Of a stretch of DNA of 5,567 bases, positions 113 to 5,567 are shown piece by piece. A program made the position numbers and the translations under genes. The stretch covers positions 1-5,567 of IMG/VR virus record IMGVR_UViG_3300045988_005826. The stretch is one strand, 5' to 3'. The stretch is from a virus. The first letter of the stretch is position 1. Each line of letters opens with the position of its first letter. Under the pieces are notes generated by a model. It searched no databases. It saw only the letters and a program-made list of their open reading frames with translations, and was not told the origin of the DNA.

Positions 113-150
113 TTTTCAACAGTTTTAACAGTTTCAACAGGTTTTCAACA
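113..150 (+). repeat. Iteron cluster A: four tandem (T)TTTCAACA-type repeats at 9-11 nt spacing
   Basis: The copies are TTTTCAACA (113-121), TTTTAACA variant (123-130), TTTCAACA (132-139) and TTTTCAACA (142-150). All share one orientation and are separated by a single G or GG. Confidence 0.85.
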
Positions 151-156
151 AAAAGT

Positions 157-176
157 TGCACAAATGGTTTTGTGCA
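157..176. repeat. Perfect 8-bp inverted repeat TGCACAAA-N4-TTTGTGCA between iteron clusters
   Basis: TGCACAAA at 157-164 and TTTGTGCA at 169-176 are exact reverse complements, separated by the 4-nt spacer TGGT. This could be a hairpin or a dimeric protein-binding site. Confidence 0.7.
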
Positions 177-186
177 TATTGCTACA

Positions 187-226
187 CTTTCAACAATTCA
201 ACAACTTATCCACAAAATTATCAACA
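187..226 (+). repeat. Iteron cluster B: two TTCAACA iterons, a perfect DnaA box and a near-perfect DnaA box
   Basis: The sites are CTTTCAACA (187-195), AATTCAACA (195-203), TTATCCACA (206-214) and TTATCAACA (218-226), all in the same orientation as cluster A. Confidence 0.85.
206..214 (+). promoter_or_regulatory. Consensus DnaA box (TTATCCACA)
   Basis: This is an exact 9/9 match to the canonical high-affinity DnaA box 5'-TTATCCACA-3'. A second site 12 nt downstream (TTATCAACA, 218-226) matches 8/9. The flanking iterons TTTTCAACA differ at one position from the relaxed consensus TTWTNCACA. Confidence 0.6.
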
Positions 227-271
227 TTAAAATTATTAAAAAAATATCGCTCCAAGGATAATTATTCGTTG

Positions 272-288
272 TTTTCAACATTTCAACA
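272..288 (+). repeat. Iteron cluster C: two abutting copies TTTTCAACA + TTTCAACA
   Basis: TTTTCAACA at 272-280 and TTTCAACA at 281-288 have the same orientation as clusters A and B. A further degenerate copy, CTACAACA, lies at 305-312. Confidence 0.8.
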
Positions 289-311
289 CTCCCTACTACT
301 ACGACTACAAC

Positions 312-335
312 AAATAAATAATAAATAATAAAAAT
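312..335. other. Pure A/T tract (candidate DNA-unwinding element)
   Basis: The 24 consecutive A/T bases AAATAAATAATAAATAATAAAAAT abut the GC-rich palindrome that starts at 336. Confidence 0.6.
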
Positions 336-445: not shown

Positions 446-1465
446 CTAAAAAATGCCTTTTGCTTTGGACATCTTCTTCTTCATGGTCGTTTCCTTGTCT
501 GCCAGTTGTTCGGCATACTGTTTGTCAGTTCCCATGTTTCTTTCGATTAGGGACGCGATGGCTTTTCCTTGACGGTACTTCTTGATTCTCCACGCTTTTT
601 CCGGATTTTCTGCTTCTAGTTTTCGCCAATAATATTCTGGTATGGCCGCTCTCTTGCCGTTTGTCAGCTGGATGTATCCAAGTTGCCAGAGTCTTTCCTG
701 GTTCTCTTGAAACCATTCGTCCCCTAGTCCTGGTTTTCGGCTCATTACACAGAATGGCGGTATGATTCCCATTTTCTGGTACTTTTTTCGGTCGTTGCCG
801 AACAGCTTTTTGGTCACATATCCGGCTACATAGTTGTATGTTTCCGGCGTTGCTTGTGCAATGTCAACTGTACCCTGTCTCCAGATCTTGAGCAGCTTAT
901 CGCTCGTGTAGTGTCCGAATCTTGATAGCTTATGGATTGGCTTCAGGTCGTCTGGATGCCACCCGTACAGTATCATGTGGTAATGTGGTCTTGCCGTGTT
1001 GTCCCCGTACTCTCCTGCCAGAAAGTACCTTAGAGCTTCTCCTGTGGCTTTCCTGAGCCTTTTAATAAACAGCTGGACATCCTCTACGCTTAAAGTTAGC
1101 GCTGTTCTAGGACGCTCTGAGGTGTCTTTCCAGACGTTTACCCCGCCTCTGTAGATTTCACCTGTTTCCGTGTCCTGTGTTGGTACATGGTCTTCATCAT
1201 AGGTGAGTGTGATAAACCAGATGCTTTCTTTTTCGTGGCTGTATGCTTCCAGCTCCATTCTTGTGCTCCAGTCTTTCCGCTTTCGGAGTTTGCATCCGGT
1301 GCATTGTCCACACGGTATAAGCATGACGTCTTTACGGTACATCAGGTCTTCATATCTCAGTTCGGTCTTATGACTCGCGTTAAAAGAAGCGAGTGAGTAT
1401 ACTCGCCCACTCGCTTCTTTATTGTGAGGTACATAAAACCGGATTAACGGTTTGTTACACCCCAT
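446..1465 (-). CDS. VP4: Replication initiation protein VP4 (HUH rolling-circle endonuclease, phiX174 gpA-like), 339 aa
   Basis: All three RCR motifs are present: FITLTY (motif I), RPHYHMILYG with HYH encoded at 977-985 (motif II, HUH), and YVAGYVTKK with two Tyr three residues apart at 818-832 (motif III; compare phiX gpA YVAKYVNK). The gokushovirus-typical N-terminal PCGQCTGCKLRK is also present. The SD GAGGAAG sits 8 nt upstream of the ATG. The ATG follows the VP2 stop with a 1-nt gap (TAA-A-ATG). Confidence 0.93.
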   Translation of the reverse strand: MGCNKPLIRFYVPHNKEASGRVYSLASFNASHKTELRYEDLMYRKDVMLIPCGQCTGCKLRKRKDWSTRMELEAYSHEKESIWFITLTYDEDHVPTQDTETGEIYRGGVNVWKDTSERPRTALTLSVEDVQLFIKRLRKATGEALRYFLAGEYGDNTARPHYHMILYGWHPDDLKPIHKLSRFGHYTSDKLLKIWRQGTVDIAQATPETYNYVAGYVTKKLFGNDRKKYQKMGIIPPFCVMSRKPGLGDEWFQENQERLWQLGYIQLTNGKRAAIPEYYWRKLEAENPEKAWRIKKYRQGKAIASLIERNMGTDKQYAEQLADKETTMKKKMSKAKGIF

Positions 1466-1466
1466 T

Positions 1467-2270
1467 TTATCTTCCTCTTCCTGCGCCTCCGCCGTGACTT
1501 TGGCCGCCGCCCATTTGATGATTGTACTGTTTGCTTTGATTTCCCAAGCTGTTAAGGCTGTTAAGGACGTCTCTGAATTCTTTTAGTGCCTTGTCTGCGC
1601 TTGTGTGTGACCAGCTCGTTGCGTCTCCTACTGCTTGTGCGGCATTGTACCAGTTACTTTCACTTTTGCTCCATGTGTTGTTGTGGTTCTGGCTTACTCC
1701 CAGTGCGCTTGCGCTTGCCGCGCTACTGCTTGCAAGGCCCATACTTGCGCCGCTGATTGTGCCTTGTGCGCCTCCTGGCGTACTTGCTCCGCCTTGCTGG
1801 TATGCTAGGATAGGGTTGATGCCTGCTTTTTTCATGTCTTCTACAGCTCGCTGATAAGCTGTATTGCTCATTTGCTCTTGCCAAGCTCTGTTTTTGGCTG
1901 CTTCTGCGCTGTTGTAGGCCATCGCTGCGTTGTTGCTTATCTGGTTGTATACACCTTGCGTGATTGCCGCCATGGTGTTGTAACCCATCTGTTCGAACAT
2001 GCTTCGACGGTTAAACTTCTGCTGGCTTTGCATGTTGCCTTGAATTGCCCCTAGCATGCTGTTCCAGTCTTGCAGATTCTGTTCTCGGTTTACGCCGCTG
2101 GCGGCGCTGCTGTAGCCGCCTCCCTGGCTTGTGCTTTCGTTGTGCTGTTGGCTTCCTCCGGTGCTTTCCATCAGACTTCCGCCTAGCGCTTTGTTTATGA
2201 GTCCTCCGGCGATTGTTGGCAGTAACTGCTTGCCGATTCCAAGTAGTGCGCTTCCAATTTGTGCTAACAT
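1467..2270 (-). CDS. VP2: DNA pilot / minor capsid protein VP2, 267 aa
   Basis: The gene lies immediately after VP1, as in gokushoviruses. It has a Gly-rich hydrophobic N-terminus ([31 protein letters not shown]), low-complexity Gly/Ser/Gln/Ala content, and a VP2-like [11 protein letters not shown] motif. No SD precedes the ATG, which is preceded only by a T7 run. Confidence 0.8.
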
Positions 2271-2316: not shown

Positions 2317-3981
2317 TCAGTGATGATCTACCAGACCCGGAATACTGTACATCGGCATAGGTCTCACGCTGGTATTGTCAATGACCGTGTCCATGATAAA
2401 CTGAGGCTCATTGTCCTTGGCCAGAGTTCTCTGGATCTCGGAATCTCCCTCCTTCATCCATGCCTGGCTCAGGCTCGGAGTTTCCTTGTAGTTGTCGCCG
2501 TAGTGCCAGCTGTCCAATGTCCCTTCTGCATTCGAACGGAACTTGCCGCTGATGCGGTTTGGCTTCATTCGGTATTCTGCCCATGCTTCTTGATAACCAA
2601 AGGCCTGCTCATCAGTGTCTGTACCAGTGAGATAAAGCTCTTTCTTCAGGATAGCCTGCTCTCCCAGATTTGCGAAGACAGGATAGTAGAAGTCCAGATT
2701 GGTTTTCCGGCTCCACATCCGTTCCAAGCCCTGCTGGTAGGTATGGTCATGTCGGATGCAGCATACGCCGATAACATAGCCGTGTTCTTCGAAGCTCTTC
2801 GTGAACATGCTGCCATTGTACGGCGTAACACTTATTGCCGCGGCGTTACCCTGCGGACTCTCTTGCGTTGTGCCACTGGTCTGGATGACCTGACTCATGT
2901 TGATAGTGATGCGTGTGCCACCCAGGTACTCAGGAATTTGTACCGTCTTATCGCTGATTTTGGTGTGGAACAGCGAATAAATCATCTCTCGGTAACGACT
3001 GCCTCCGCGTGCCAGCTGTTCGTAGTACTTCTGTACCTGAAATGCCTGTCTCAGCTGATTAATGGTTGCCGATGTTGCGTTTGACAGGTCTGCTTTTAGT
3101 GTAAGTGGTTCCTCTACCAGGTTTCCGGGTTGTCCTAAGATACCGTCATATTTTGTTAATTCGGCTACGCTTCCGTTGTGTATTTCCAGCTGGCCTCCGT
3201 CGGCAGGTGCTTTTTGTCCGTTACTCCGGTAGTATCCGTATATTTTTGCAGTGTCTCCCAGCGGAATTTTTACAGGTTCTGCCGATTTCTGAGGGGAAGG
3301 CAAAGCCGATGTGAAATAGTCGTGGTACTTATTGACCGGTAAAGGTCTCCCGCCGGTGTATGCGTTCTGGAGAATATACTCCAAGTCCGGCTTTGCCGCG
3401 TCCATGCCTTTGGTTTCGTCGTCCGTGTAGTTCACGGTTGCGTCTGCCGTGCTGTTGATGGCCGGATTGTCAACATTTTGGTCTCTAAACCATTCCTGCC
3501 ATATCATAGCATAAGCGCGAAATGGCAGTGCATTAACGCTGAACGCCGAACTTGCGTTTATGCTTACCTTGGTCGGGATGCCCATATAGTCCATGATGCT
3601 TCCCTCATAAGGTGCAGGCTTTTCTGCCGTGCCGGTAACTTTGATCTGTGGAATAGTGTATTCCTGAGTCTGTGTCCAAGGCCCGCTGTCGTTCTCACCC
3701 ATAAATCGCTTGAAGTGGTCCCAGATGATTCGACAAGGCACGTTAAAATAGTAGATGTCCATGTGACAGTTATCCATAACTGGGAAGATAGGAGTTGTCA
3801 TACGGATAATAGCGGCCTGGTCGATGCTGAACGTGTCTCCCGGTAACACCTCGTCCACATAAAACGGGATGAGCTGTCCTGCGTTGAGCGTCAGCTTGAC
3901 ATCCTGTCGCCGCTTGAATCGGCTTCGCGTAATGTCCAAGCGCGGAACTTGGTTAAATCCTGCGTCTTTATTCCTGTTCAT
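2317..3981 (-). CDS. VP1: Major capsid protein VP1 (Microviridae F-like jelly-roll capsid), 554 aa
   Basis: This is the longest ORF. The N-terminal region [43 protein letters not shown]...TPIFPVMDN...[12 protein letters not shown] matches the conserved gokushovirus VP1 / phiX F signature. Its size is typical of Gokushovirinae. The SD GGAGGTGAAGGA lies upstream. The start overlaps the VP3 stop by 14 nt. Confidence 0.95.
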
Positions 3982-4462
3982 TCGATTCCTTCACCTCCGT
4001 CTTTTCTTTTTCGGGCTTTTCCGGCTCAGCGTAGATCCCCAGATTTTTTGCCCACTCGACCGTACCAAAGTCTGCGACGAACTTATCAACGTCGTTATCG
4101 TACTTGAGCTTGATTTCCTTCGGTACGTCGTCCCAAATCTGCTCTGCGCGGAGCATGATGTTTTGGAGTTCTGCTAGGTTCTCCGGTGCTTCGGTGTAGT
4201 CCTGGATGCCGTTCCCAATGTCCGGTACGAGTCGTGCTGCAAGATCTGGGTCAATGGATGCCCGACGGATGATGTTTTCCAGCTTGGTCTCTTCCAAATA
4301 GCTGTCAATTTCAGCCTGTTGGTCAATGACCTGGTCAAGCTTCAGGACTTTTTCGCCTTTTTCGTTGATTTTCCAGAGGTACGTTCGTCTTACGGTTTCT
4401 CCTGCTTCGGTCGGTTTTGCTGTTGCGGTTTCCCGCCAATTACTTACTGAGCGATACGCCAT
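3968..4462 (-). CDS. VP3: Internal scaffolding protein VP3, 164 aa from the ATG at 4462
   Basis: The protein is acidic and helical. It carries the gokushovirus VP3-like C-terminal pattern ...DYTEAPENLAELQNIMLRAEQIWDDVPKEIKLKYDNDVDKFVADF... and lies directly upstream of VP1. The ORF-track start at 4510 is a TTG. The ATG at 4460-4462 has the SD AAGGAG 10 nt upstream, so it is preferred. Confidence 0.8.
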   Translation of the reverse strand: MAYRSVSNWRETATAKPTEAGETVRRTYLWKINEKGEKVLKLDQVIDQQAEIDSYLEETKLENIIRRASIDPDLAARLVPDIGNGIQDYTEAPENLAELQNIMLRAEQIWDDVPKEIKLKYDNDVDKFVADFGTVEWAKNLGIYAEPEKPEKEKTEVKESNEQE

Positions 4463-4676
4463 CGAAGATGTTCTCCTTTTCGTTCTCAAAGATGCCCGTG
4501 GTTTCGTCAAACTTTGCCAGTCTTACAAGCCGGTAGTCGCTAGCCGCTTTGCTCATGATGTTGTTCGGGTCCGTCAGGGCGATTTTGAAGTTACGCTCTG
4601 CAACCTTATCGTCGCGCTCGTTAAAGGTGGTAATGTAGCCGTTAACACAACGGTCGAAGATTCCGTATACCTTCAT
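4440..4676 (-). CDS. Small conserved non-structural protein at the VP5 position, 78 aa
   Basis: A strong SD (AAGGAG) lies 8 nt upstream of the ATG. The gene sits immediately 5' of VP3, where gokushoviruses carry VP5/ORF5. The pattern MKVYGIFD...F...D..A.RNF......P.......DY.LVRLAKFDETTG resembles a recurrent small Microviridae protein family. The functional call is tentative. Confidence 0.65.
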   Translation of the reverse strand: MKVYGIFDRCVNGYITTFNERDDKVAERNFKIALTDPNNIMSKAASDYRLVRLAKFDETTGIFENEKENIFDGVSLSK

Positions 4677-4787: not shown

Positions 4788-4903
4788 AGCCTGATGCCCC
4801 CTCTCATTGCGCCGCTCCCCAGGTTGATTGCCTTGGTCTTCCGTGCGGTCTTGTTGTAGATTTTTGCGTCTTTCGACTTGCGGACTTTACTCCTCTTTGC
4901 CAT
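4784..4903 (-). CDS. Highly basic DNA-binding/packaging micro-protein (phiX gpJ / gokushovirus ORF8-like), 39 aa
   Basis: The sequence MAKRSKVRKSKDAKIYNKTARKTKAINLGSGAMRGGIRL is very Lys/Arg-rich and ends in a MRGGIRL-type C-terminus, as in small Microviridae DNA-condensing proteins. The ATG at 4901-4903 is preferred over the TTG at 4975 used by the ORF track. AAGGGA lies 9 nt upstream. Confidence 0.7.
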   Translation of the reverse strand: MAKRSKVRKSKDAKIYNKTARKTKAINLGSGAMRGGIRL

Positions 4904-5344: not shown

Positions 5345-5464
5345 TCAATCCCTGTTGTTTAATTCTTTTCGAACTTCGTCGTGGATGTAGCTGCATCTGT
5401 ATCCTTCTGTTTTGCATGGACAACTTTCGCAGTCTCCGTCGCAGTGATTGAATCTGTAATCCAT
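5345..5464 (-). CDS. Cysteine-rich micro-protein, 39 aa (putative metal-binding)
   Basis: My own translation gives MDYRFNHCDGDCESCPCKTEGYRCSYIHDEVRKELNNRD*. The SD AAGGAG lies 9 nt upstream of the ATG at 5462-5464. It is the first gene after the noncoding region. It has 5 Cys and 2 His (H7, C8-x3-C12-x2-C15-x-C17-x6-C24-x3-H28). Its C-ending codon bias matches VP1. It is under the 60-aa track cutoff. Confidence 0.55.
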   Translation of the reverse strand: MDYRFNHCDGDCESCPCKTEGYRCSYIHDEVRKELNNRD

Positions 5465-5512: not shown

Positions 5513-5567
5513 AAAAAAGTTTAGATGTACTATTTCTTGAAGGTCATGCGCTAGGCGCGGTGCGCCG
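5513..5567. repeat. Terminal direct repeat, right copy (redundant with 1-55)
   Basis: Exact 55-nt copy of 1-55. The true unit length is 5,512 nt. Confidence 0.95.

Follow-up and report, generated by a model that had tools for sequence, protein, structure and literature searches.

The stretch of DNA analysed here, referred to as the window (5,567 nucleotides, nt; IMG/VR record IMGVR_UViG_3300045988_005826), corresponds to a circular gokushovirus genome of 5512 nt; its two ends overlap by 55 nt, positions 1–55 being identical to 5513–5567. The minus strand carries every gene of the 5512-nt genome, and its sole large noncoding region, which extends from about 5465 across the junction to 445, contains the array of short direct repeats that is the subject of this work. 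Our analyses indicate that this array and the sequence immediately following it (113–336) probably constitute a miniature chromosomal-type origin module, to which the host initiator DnaA would be recruited so that the phage duplex is opened for replication; the probability of this reading is, in our estimate, about 65%.

Features of the genome

The features of the module and its flank are listed below, followed by the genes (ORF, open reading frame).

113–150, plus strand: distal DnaA-box cluster A, with boxes TTTTCAACA (113–121), gTTTTAACA (122–130), gTTTCAACA (131–139) and TTTTCAACA (142–150)
156–176: short hairpin/spacer TGCACAAATGGTTTTGTGCA between clusters A and B (−8.1 kcal/mol, z −4.2)
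187–226, plus strand: distal DnaA-box cluster B, with boxes cTTTCAACA (187–195), aATTCAACA (195–203), TTATCCACA (206–214, canonical) and TTATCAACA (218–226)
227–271: variable AT-rich spacer of low conservation, in which 228–247 ranks second in the genome for low duplex stability (−16.8 kcal/mol)
272–288, plus strand: proximal tandem DnaA boxes TTTTCAACA (272–280) and aTTTCAACA (280–288), facing the trios
289–292: 4-nt GC-rich spacer CTCC, separating the proximal box from the first trio
293–313, minus strand: DnaA-trio block, plus strand CTA CTA CTA CGA CTA CAA CAA, minus strand 3'-GAT-5' three times
314–336: AT-rich tract ATAAATAATAAATAATAAAAATC, predicted DNA unwinding element; 314–333 has the lowest duplex stability of any 20-mer in the genome
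337–376: GC-rich alternating purine/pyrimidine hairpin flanking the module (−23.0 kcal/mol on the plus strand, with 18 pairs including G-T; −18.4 on the minus strand), terminator-like on the minus strand
446–1465, minus strand: VP4, the rolling-circle replication initiator (HUH Rep), adjoining the module (PF23343, 2.7e-17; phrog_942, 3.8e-109)
1467–2270, minus strand: VP2
2317–3981, minus strand: VP1
3968–4510, minus strand: VP3 scaffold
4440–4676, minus strand: VP5
Extending to 5464, minus strand: small ORFs

The repeat array

The heptamer TTCAACA is present in seven exact copies (at 115, 133, 144, 189, 197, 274 and 282), all of them on the plus strand, and is found nowhere else in the genome. 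The number expected per genome is 0.97, and none of 200 dinucleotide shuffles attained a count of 7. The 9-mer TTWTCMACA, with 5 copies inside 113–280, is likewise restricted to the plus strand (0.23 expected; 0/200 shuffles). TTATCCACA is present exactly at 206–214 and TTATCAACA at 218–226, and variant copies of the heptamer, viz. TTTAACA (124), ATCAACA (220) and GTCAACA (5497), are read directly in the sequence. Eight distal boxes are arranged in two clusters (113–150 and 187–226) and two proximal boxes in tandem (272–288); the start-to-start spacing within cluster A is 9, 9 and 11, and Tandem Repeats Finder reports periods of 9 (114–150) and 8 (189–204 and 273–288). The array is without self-complementarity. 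The sites listed in an earlier note made from the letters of the window (the original prediction), which described TTCAACA as a repeat in a single orientation, are all present where it placed them, and the shuffle comparison that it proposed has been carried out with the result given above. One of its variants, TACAACA (306), is reassigned here, as it forms part of a trinucleotide-repeat block, CTACTACTACGACTACAACAA (293–313), located after the array.

Similarity to the basal unwinding system

The basal unwinding system (BUS) consists of two DnaA boxes in the same orientation, a GC spacer of ~4 bp, DnaA-trios (3'-GAT-5' on the complement) and an AT-rich unwinding element (PMC8287927, PMC6669920), the spacer between box and trios being described as a "GC-rich region, 4 bp on average" (PMC8287927). 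The published program for BUS searches looks for a box with at most 2 mismatches to TTATCCACA located 0–16 bp upstream of the trios (with a peak at 10–13 bp), a second tandem box in the same orientation 0–3 bp away with at most 4 mismatches, and at least 3 consecutive trios with a central A (NAN), 3'-GAT-5' being preferred (PMC8287927). The trio sequence of C. difficile is 5'-CACCTACTACTATTACTACTATGA and the trio strand of B. subtilis is 5'-CTACTATTACTTCTACTA.

The window agrees with each sequence rule of this program. Read along the plus strand, the full order of 272–336 is TTTTCAACA-TTTCAACA, CTCC, the seven trinucleotides listed above and ATAAATAATAAATAATAAAAATC. The box at 272–280 has 2 mismatches to TTATCCACA and lies 12 bp before the first trio (293), and the second box (280–288) has 3 mismatches. 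The spacer is CTCC at 289–292 (CCCC, TGCC, ACTC and similar in relatives), and it is followed by at least three consecutive trios, CTA occurring three times on the plus strand at 293–301 and 4–5 times in series in many relatives. Directly past the trios lies the least stable 20-mer duplex of the genome (314–333; −16.3 kcal/mol vs a genome 20-mer mean of −26.5, sd 2.5), and AT-rich DNA is also found downstream of the trios in relatives and in bacterial oriC. The distal CTACAACAA(G) of the trio block is a phage-specific extension that is conserved in the main clade. The element is flanked in the phage genome by VP4 and small ORFs and not by dnaA or dnaN; it has the layout of a BUS, yet it is no chromosomal oriC.

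Conservation, mobility and variation among phages

Matches to the noncoding region, with 67–96% identity, were obtained in 44 GenBank records of gut gokushoviruses (from the faeces of humans, pigs, monkeys, dogs and raccoons), and for several of these records (H10–H12, H15) the region provides the only similarity at the megablast level. Alignments were made of 15 sequences and then of 51 and 114 genomes. The aligned layout consists of cluster A (3–4 boxes), a variable hairpin spacer, cluster B (4 boxes), a variable AT-rich spacer and the tandem pair C, after which come a near-invariant block, CTACTACTACnnCTACAACAAGTTA, and an AT-rich tract. In the 114 genomes the box columns carry 1.62 bits of information vs 0.89 bits for the spacers. 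The pattern used to select these genomes included the invariant block, and a second independent scan that demanded CTACTACTAC only likewise recovered CTACAACAAG in the main clade. In place of the hairpin at 156–176 relatives have other hairpins of differing sequence, and the spacer at 227–271 is possibly a bending or looping region.

Cluster A is kept in the relatives, with an exchange between A and C at box position 6. The pooled consensus of the repeats in relatives is (T)TTTC[A/C]ACA, position 6 being A in 85% and C in 15%, and roughly half of the relatives have TTTTCAACA at the positions aligned with boxes 3 and 4 of cluster B, of which the former is the TTATCCACA site at 206. The alignment of relatives proposed with the original prediction, now extended to 114 genomes, thus bears out the conservation of the array and places TTATCCACA and TTTTCAACA as alternatives at one site. 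Because A and C replace each other in aligned boxes, the "iterons" and the "DnaA box" of that prediction belong to one site family; its DnaA-box basis stands and its two separate classes of site do not, the iterons being the DnaA boxes. The best interpretation of the repeats is as DnaA boxes of a host type, TTTTC[A/C]ACA, and not as iterons of a phage Rep.

The module is present in more than 110 gut gokushovirus genomes, with the same boxes in phages whose VP4 is 31–90% identical to that of the window. Among 115 IMG/VR genomes, the module is "anti" (gene-antisense and downstream of VP4, as in the window) in 99 and "same" (in the sense of the genes) in 16. One "same" clade has the module between VP2 and VP4, as do GenBank records KT264784 and MT121961, and in another "same" clade (L022, L297, L322) the module alone is inverted in situ with its flanks unchanged. 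The occurrence of both orientations, together with the constancy of the boxes despite the divergence of VP4, points to a host factor acting on duplex DNA. As a unit of ~230 bp the module acts as a cassette, inverted in the three genomes just named and relocated between VP2 and VP4, in the sense of the genes, in another clade (L021, L036, L085, L098, L133, L258 and others).

Variants of the module are also informative. One phage (L292) has lost cluster A and half of cluster B and retains the last two boxes of B, the proximal pair and the trios. Two distant 4.7-kb microviruses (L313, L316), whose VP1 is ~35% and VP4 ~31% identical to those of the window, carry five canonical TTATCCACA boxes, continued by TTTCCACATTTCCACA, ATGC, (CTA)6 and AT-rich DNA, without CTACAACAAG. 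The architecture is retained in these two phages while the type of box differs, which suggests a different host, whose origin would resemble that of the Lachnospiraceae metagenome-assembled genome (MAG) L136. In several relatives (L011, L035, L069, L116; L014, L021, L036, L085, L133) an inverted box, TGTGGAAAAC, is located 3–4 nt from GTTTTCAACA at the upstream end of cluster A; this pair is absent from the window. In single-stranded DNA (ssDNA) the pair could form a hairpin presenting a duplex DnaA box, similar in this to the DnaA-dependent "A-site" primosome hairpin.

Related modules in bacterial chromosome origins

A scan of one genome per bacterial species was carried out with the phage-derived 22-nt pattern TTTCMACANNNNCTACTACTAC (box, 4 nt and CTACTACTAC). 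At least 120 matches were obtained vs ~35 expected by chance from the information content of the pattern, and at least 91 of the 120 matches listed have a DnaA C-terminal domain within ~0.4–1.9 kb. At the 4 loci examined with Pfam, dnaA lies upstream and dnaN downstream of the match. The matches listed come from Streptomyces, cyanobacteria, Acidobacteriota, Deinococcus and Clostridia. In the 119 listed matches for which the arrangement was tabulated, the upstream box abuts the proximal TTTCMACA in 18 and is separated from it by a 1-nt gap in 76, and the spacer has at least 3 of 4 positions G or C in 102; the matches listed have a median of 4 trios, followed by AT-rich DNA. The abutting pair of the phage, TTTTCCACATTTCCACA, recurs identically beside dnaA in bacteria. 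The phage string TTTCMACANNNNCTACTACTAC is a specific signature of chromosomal origin-opening modules across phyla and can be used to probe for them, and a practical by-product of this work is that "box + 4 nt + CTACTACTAC" locates bacterial origins with high specificity.

An A at position 6 of the proximal box (A-type) was found in 12 of the 120 matches listed. Eight of these are from gut Clostridia, viz. Oscillospiraceae (L137, L152, L172, L183), Ruminococcus (L164), Faecalibacterium (L249), Eubacteriales (L177) and a goat-cecum Clostridia MAG (L225). The others include Mesoaciditoga (L211) and a Pseudanabaenaceae cyanobacterium (L159) in which only the proximal box is A-type, and two (L240, L254) look like chance matches. 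The dnaA–dnaN spacers of L152, L164 and L172 are packed with TTTTCAACA mixed with TTTTCCACA, and runs in them such as TTTCAACAgcTTTCAACAggtTTTCCACA mirror cluster A of the phage, whose arrangement "CAACAggTTTTC" recurs in the dnaA–dnaN spacers of Ruminococcus and Oscillospiraceae. Since A-type boxes, mixed with TTTTCCACA, fill the dnaA–dnaN spacers of gut Oscillospiraceae, Ruminococcus and Faecalibacterium MAGs, TTTTCAACA would appear to be a variant of the DnaA box in gut Oscillospirales-type bacteria, and the phage host is probably a member of the Oscillospirales.

All origins with at least 4 A-type (TTTTCAACA) boxes have RDHST and not RDHTT in domain IV of DnaA. This was considered as a marker of A-type boxes and was left unused as evidence, because RDHST also occurs with canonical boxes, e.g. 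in Deinococcus. Modules of boxes and trios with canonical TTTCCACA boxes were also observed in IMG/VR contigs L261, L282, L332, L333, L339 and L345, which are larger than microviruses or are pieces of such contigs; these may be pieces of host origins included in prophage calls, or the contigs may be mobile elements of another kind whose origins are of the chromosomal type.

Proposed function of the module

A role in the opening of the phage duplex is proposed from the observed architecture of the sequence, its conservation, its mobility among phages and its identity with the oriC modules located beside dnaA, from which we infer DnaA binding, unwinding and the choice of a downstream step. Host DnaA-ATP would occupy the boxes on the double-stranded replicative form, where the distal clusters would raise the local concentration of DnaA, as distal boxes do in B. 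subtilis incC (PMC6669920). From the proximal pair, DnaA would then oligomerise onto the trios of the minus strand, stretch that strand and melt the adjacent AT tract at 314–336. Two continuations can be envisaged. The host helicase may be loaded at the opening, leading to theta-type amplification or maintenance of the replicative form, or the opening may expose ssDNA to VP4, the HUH nuclease of the phage. HUH nucleases require a single-stranded substrate. The occurrence of the module in either orientation fits an element that acts on duplex DNA.

The original prediction had recognized in the array the grammar of a chromosomal theta origin and not of an origin of the phiX type. This core idea now has strong comparative support, and to it are added the diagnostic GC spacer, trios and AT element at 289–336, which had been missed. 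The opening of the duplex by DnaA, a role absent from the list given there, appears to be the best-supported one. Of the roles that were listed, binding by VP4 or by a phage micro-protein is disfavoured, the same boxes being found with VP4 at 31–90% identity and in bacterial oriC; a role in loading the primosome for the complementary strand is disfavoured here, as DnaA boxes require a duplex and the array is not self-complementary; and pure titration of host DnaA leaves the conserved trios, spacer and AT tract unexplained.

Several observations weigh against the opening of the phage duplex by host DnaA. Microviruses are not known to need DnaA, and the phage has its own rolling-circle initiator (VP4), which leaves unexplained what it would gain from a second initiation system. 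The predominant box, TTTTCAACA, deviates at position 6 from the E. coli consensus TTWTNCACA, and it is from its position in bacterial origins that we expect DnaA to bind it. Trios 4, 6 and 7 (CGA, CAA, CAA) depart from the NAN rule, and the conserved CTACAACAAG is without a counterpart in bacterial origins, implying an additional, phage-specific function. The AT tract at 314–336 doubles as a T-run after the GC hairpin on the minus (coding) strand, where it is terminator-like. Lastly, blastn of 100–345 against the bacterial loci gave motif-level matches only (at most 65 nt) and no long alignment. The recent capture of a host oriC fragment was considered and rejected on this ground; the data support motif-level mimicry or convergence instead.

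With less confidence, and at somewhat short of even odds, we envisage a functional copy of the host's DnaA-dependent origin-opening module, tuned to the box variant of the host, in a large clade of gut gokushoviruses. The replicative form would thereby be opened and possibly replicated or maintained like a mini-chromosome, or its ssDNA handed to the HUH nuclease; the module would be a mobile, invertible cassette, and a second clade would have built the same from canonical boxes.

Alternative explanations

The repeats could instead form a sink or regulatory decoy for DnaA, in which ~10 boxes per replicative form, multiplied by copy number, would titrate host DnaA, so that initiation on the host chromosome is blocked or reprogrammed in the manner of datA, or phage transcription becomes DnaA-responsive, with no firing of a phage origin. 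The dense array of boxes in one orientation would suit such a sink, as would the VP4 initiator already encoded by the phage, and independence of orientation is also what a passive binding site would allow. Titration requires boxes only, and the strict geometry of proximal pair, 4-nt GC spacer, trios and AT tract is then unexplained, as is the retention in L292, besides the trios, of only four boxes, two at the end of cluster B and two in the proximal pair; we consider a sink unlikely. A promoter or transcription-factor array, e.g. of -35-like TTGAAA on the coding strand or of Spo0A 0A boxes of a sporulating host, is much less probable than a sink. The array does lie in the only large noncoding region, which must contain a promoter, one weak sigma-70-like match is present on the minus strand (286–258), and the reverse complement of the repeat, TGTTGAA, is one base off the 0A box, TGTCGAA. 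Promoter-like sites are nevertheless fewer than by chance (2 vs 5.8 in shuffles), the module is found, with respect to the genes, in either orientation and at two locations, and its trios are left unexplained. No exact 0A box is present in 1–445 and two, a chance-level number, are found elsewhere in the genome; an array of Spo0A 0A boxes was rejected for want of an exact 0A box in the array. A search of Rfam gave no match. A chance or low-complexity repeat devoid of function has next to no probability: the AT-richness of the region, and nothing else, speaks for it, whereas none of 200 shuffles matches the counts of TTCAACA and TTWTCMACA and more than 110 genomes conserve the array with column-specific constraint. 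A chance origin of the array is excluded.

Another possibility is that the repeats bind VP4, in the manner of the double-strand origins of rolling-circle replication (RCR; the "bind" repeats of pMV158) or the iterons of circular Rep-encoding ssDNA (CRESS) viruses, with a nick site in 293–313. In its favour, CTACAACAAG, whose complement in relatives is AACTTGTTGTAG, is a conserved feature of the main clade that bacterial origins lack, CTTGTTGT is found on the coding strand of phiMH2K and Chp2, the module is always beside or near VP4, and CTTG resembles the phiX/pC194 nick motif, CTTG^ATA. Rep iterons normally co-vary with Rep, whereas these repeats are constant while VP4 falls to 31% identity, and the same repeats fill bacterial dnaA–dnaN spacers. 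The module is inverted in 16 of the 115 genomes, where a nick site at this place would flip the packaged strand; no second CTTGTTGT is found on the coding strand of the "same" genomes, and strand composition tracks the genes and not the module. Binding of the repeats by VP4 is in our view improbable, falling between the sink and the promoter. A VP4 site in the opened region can coexist with DnaA boxes; CTACAACAAG/AACTTGTTGTAG sits exactly in the region that would be opened by DnaA.

The composition of fourfold sites was examined in this connection. The coding strand is A-rich and T-poor in both orientation classes, and classical gokushoviruses differ among themselves; this composition is non-diagnostic of the packaged strand and gives no support to a nick site tied to the module. 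On the coding (minus) strand of the window the fourfold sites have A 0.39 and T 0.15, with values of up to A 0.55 and T 0.10 in relatives, which is opposite to Chp2 and SpV4 (T-rich) and like phiMH2K.

The sequence CTTGTTGTAG is present twice in the window, in inverted orientation, at 305–314 (minus strand, as TTTGTTGTAG) in the conserved block after the trios and as an exact copy at 4850–4859 (plus strand). The latter lies inside the ORF of a small basic protein and is kept as CGGTCTTGTTGTAGAT in several relatives; CTTGTTGT is intergenic in phiMH2K and lies within ORF4 in Chp2. With CTTGTTGT, CTTGTTGTAG is a candidate Rep nick motif. The candidate, (A)CTTGTTGTAG, is found in the minus-strand sequence of the conserved block; in 16 of 115 genomes it has switched strands with respect to the genes, and the repeats beside it are not Rep-specific.

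Other features of the noncoding region

The GC hairpin at 337–376 is probably not part of the DnaA module. In 79 relatives, the top strand of the element (mostly gene-antisense) folds better in 73 and worse in 0, and in the "same" (gene-sense) genomes, which were scanned separately, the strongest GC hairpins likewise fold better on the gene-antisense strand; hairpins genome-wide have no strand bias. Because the GC hairpin follows the gene-antisense strand in both orientation classes, it is separable from the DnaA module, and its asymmetry points to a strand-specific signal, or else to C-to-T pressure, on the non-coding strand. Elsewhere in the noncoding region, an imperfect GC-rich hairpin at 30–70 is common to many relatives, and a strong, conserved hairpin at 398–434 (z −6.3), directly past the VP4 stop, is probably a terminator. 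The first ORF past the noncoding region (5345–5464, minus strand) encodes a cysteine-rich peptide of 39 amino acids (MDYRFNHCDGDCESCPCKTEGYRCSYIHDEVRKELNNRD) and has a good ribosome-binding site.

Significance

The replication of microviruses is taught from phiX174, in which host enzymes take over once a phage nuclease has nicked a short site, with no role for DnaA. No paper in the library that we searched joins Microviridae with "DnaA box". Literature there joining gokushovirus terms with DnaA dealt, by title and abstract, with plasmid origins of ssDNA-virus Reps, and among the titles listed from the DnaA-trio literature that mentions "phage", none is about a phage genome. Origins with DnaA boxes, the BUS, and DnaA boxes in some plasmids and phages are already known; what would be new is that a rolling-circle ssDNA phage has a complete unwinding module of the chromosomal type. 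If the function proposed here is correct, the initiator of the host chromosome would serve many of the gut's most abundant ssDNA phages, which bears on how uncultured phages start and sustain replication and on possible episomal persistence. Few hosts of gut gokushoviruses have been identified, and the type of box suggests Ruminococcaceae and Oscillospiraceae; origin mimicry would then allow the hosts of uncultured microviruses to be predicted from sequence alone, indicating Oscillospirales in the present case. The element would also provide a compact natural substrate for the study of the BUS.

Comparison with known replication origins

The gokushovirus resembles phiX174 in being a microvirus with an HUH initiator. 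Unlike the phiX174 origin, which is 30 nt long and located within gene A, the present element is intergenic, ~225 bp in length and built of sites for a host initiator, and the 30-nt phiX174 origin (CAACTTG^ATATTAATAAC...) has no match in the window at up to 3 mismatches. With the origins of RCR plasmids and CRESS viruses it shares short direct repeats in one orientation, located close to a rep gene and adjoining a conserved block and an AT-rich region; it differs from them in that its repeats do not co-vary with Rep and occur in chromosomal origins, and in that the array is without a nick-site hairpin. Like the theta origins of plasmids and phages (P1 oriR, pSC101, F, RK2), it belongs to a mobile replicon and has DnaA boxes near an AT-rich region that would recruit host DnaA. 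Those replicons depend on their own iteron-binding Rep, and their iterons, of 17–22 bp, are distinct from DnaA boxes, whereas here the repeats of 8–9 bp are themselves the DnaA boxes, trios are present, neither an iteron-binding nor any other plasmid-type Rep is encoded, and the repeats are constant across VP4 proteins of 31–90% identity. The element also resembles E. coli datA, a DnaA-titrating locus, as a cluster of DnaA boxes outside oriC, and differs from it in having the full unwinding layout, datA being without trios or the geometry of a DNA unwinding element.

The gut Oscillospiraceae, Ruminococcus and Faecalibacterium dnaA–dnaN origins (L137, L152, L164, L172, L183, L249) share with the phage element the mixture of TTTTCAACA and TTTTCCACA boxes, the style of spacing between boxes and the proximal TTTCAACA-NNNN-CTACTACTAC followed by AT-rich DNA. 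These bacterial regions differ in being longer, in having boxes in both orientations and in having no extended homology to the phage. The BUS of B. subtilis incC is the subject of Richardson (2016, 2019) and Pelliciari (2021). The phage element differs from that system in being located in a 5.5-kb rolling-circle ssDNA phage and not beside dnaA/dnaN, in that its boxes are mostly TTTTCAACA, in that the conserved CTACAACAAG replaces the distal trios, and in that its activity is a prediction from sequence. It resembles the incC system in its tandem boxes of the same orientation (the boxes at 272–288 being the counterparts of incC boxes 6 and 7), its 4-nt GC spacer, its at least three CTA/GAT trios, its AT-rich element and its further distal box clusters within ~180 bp.

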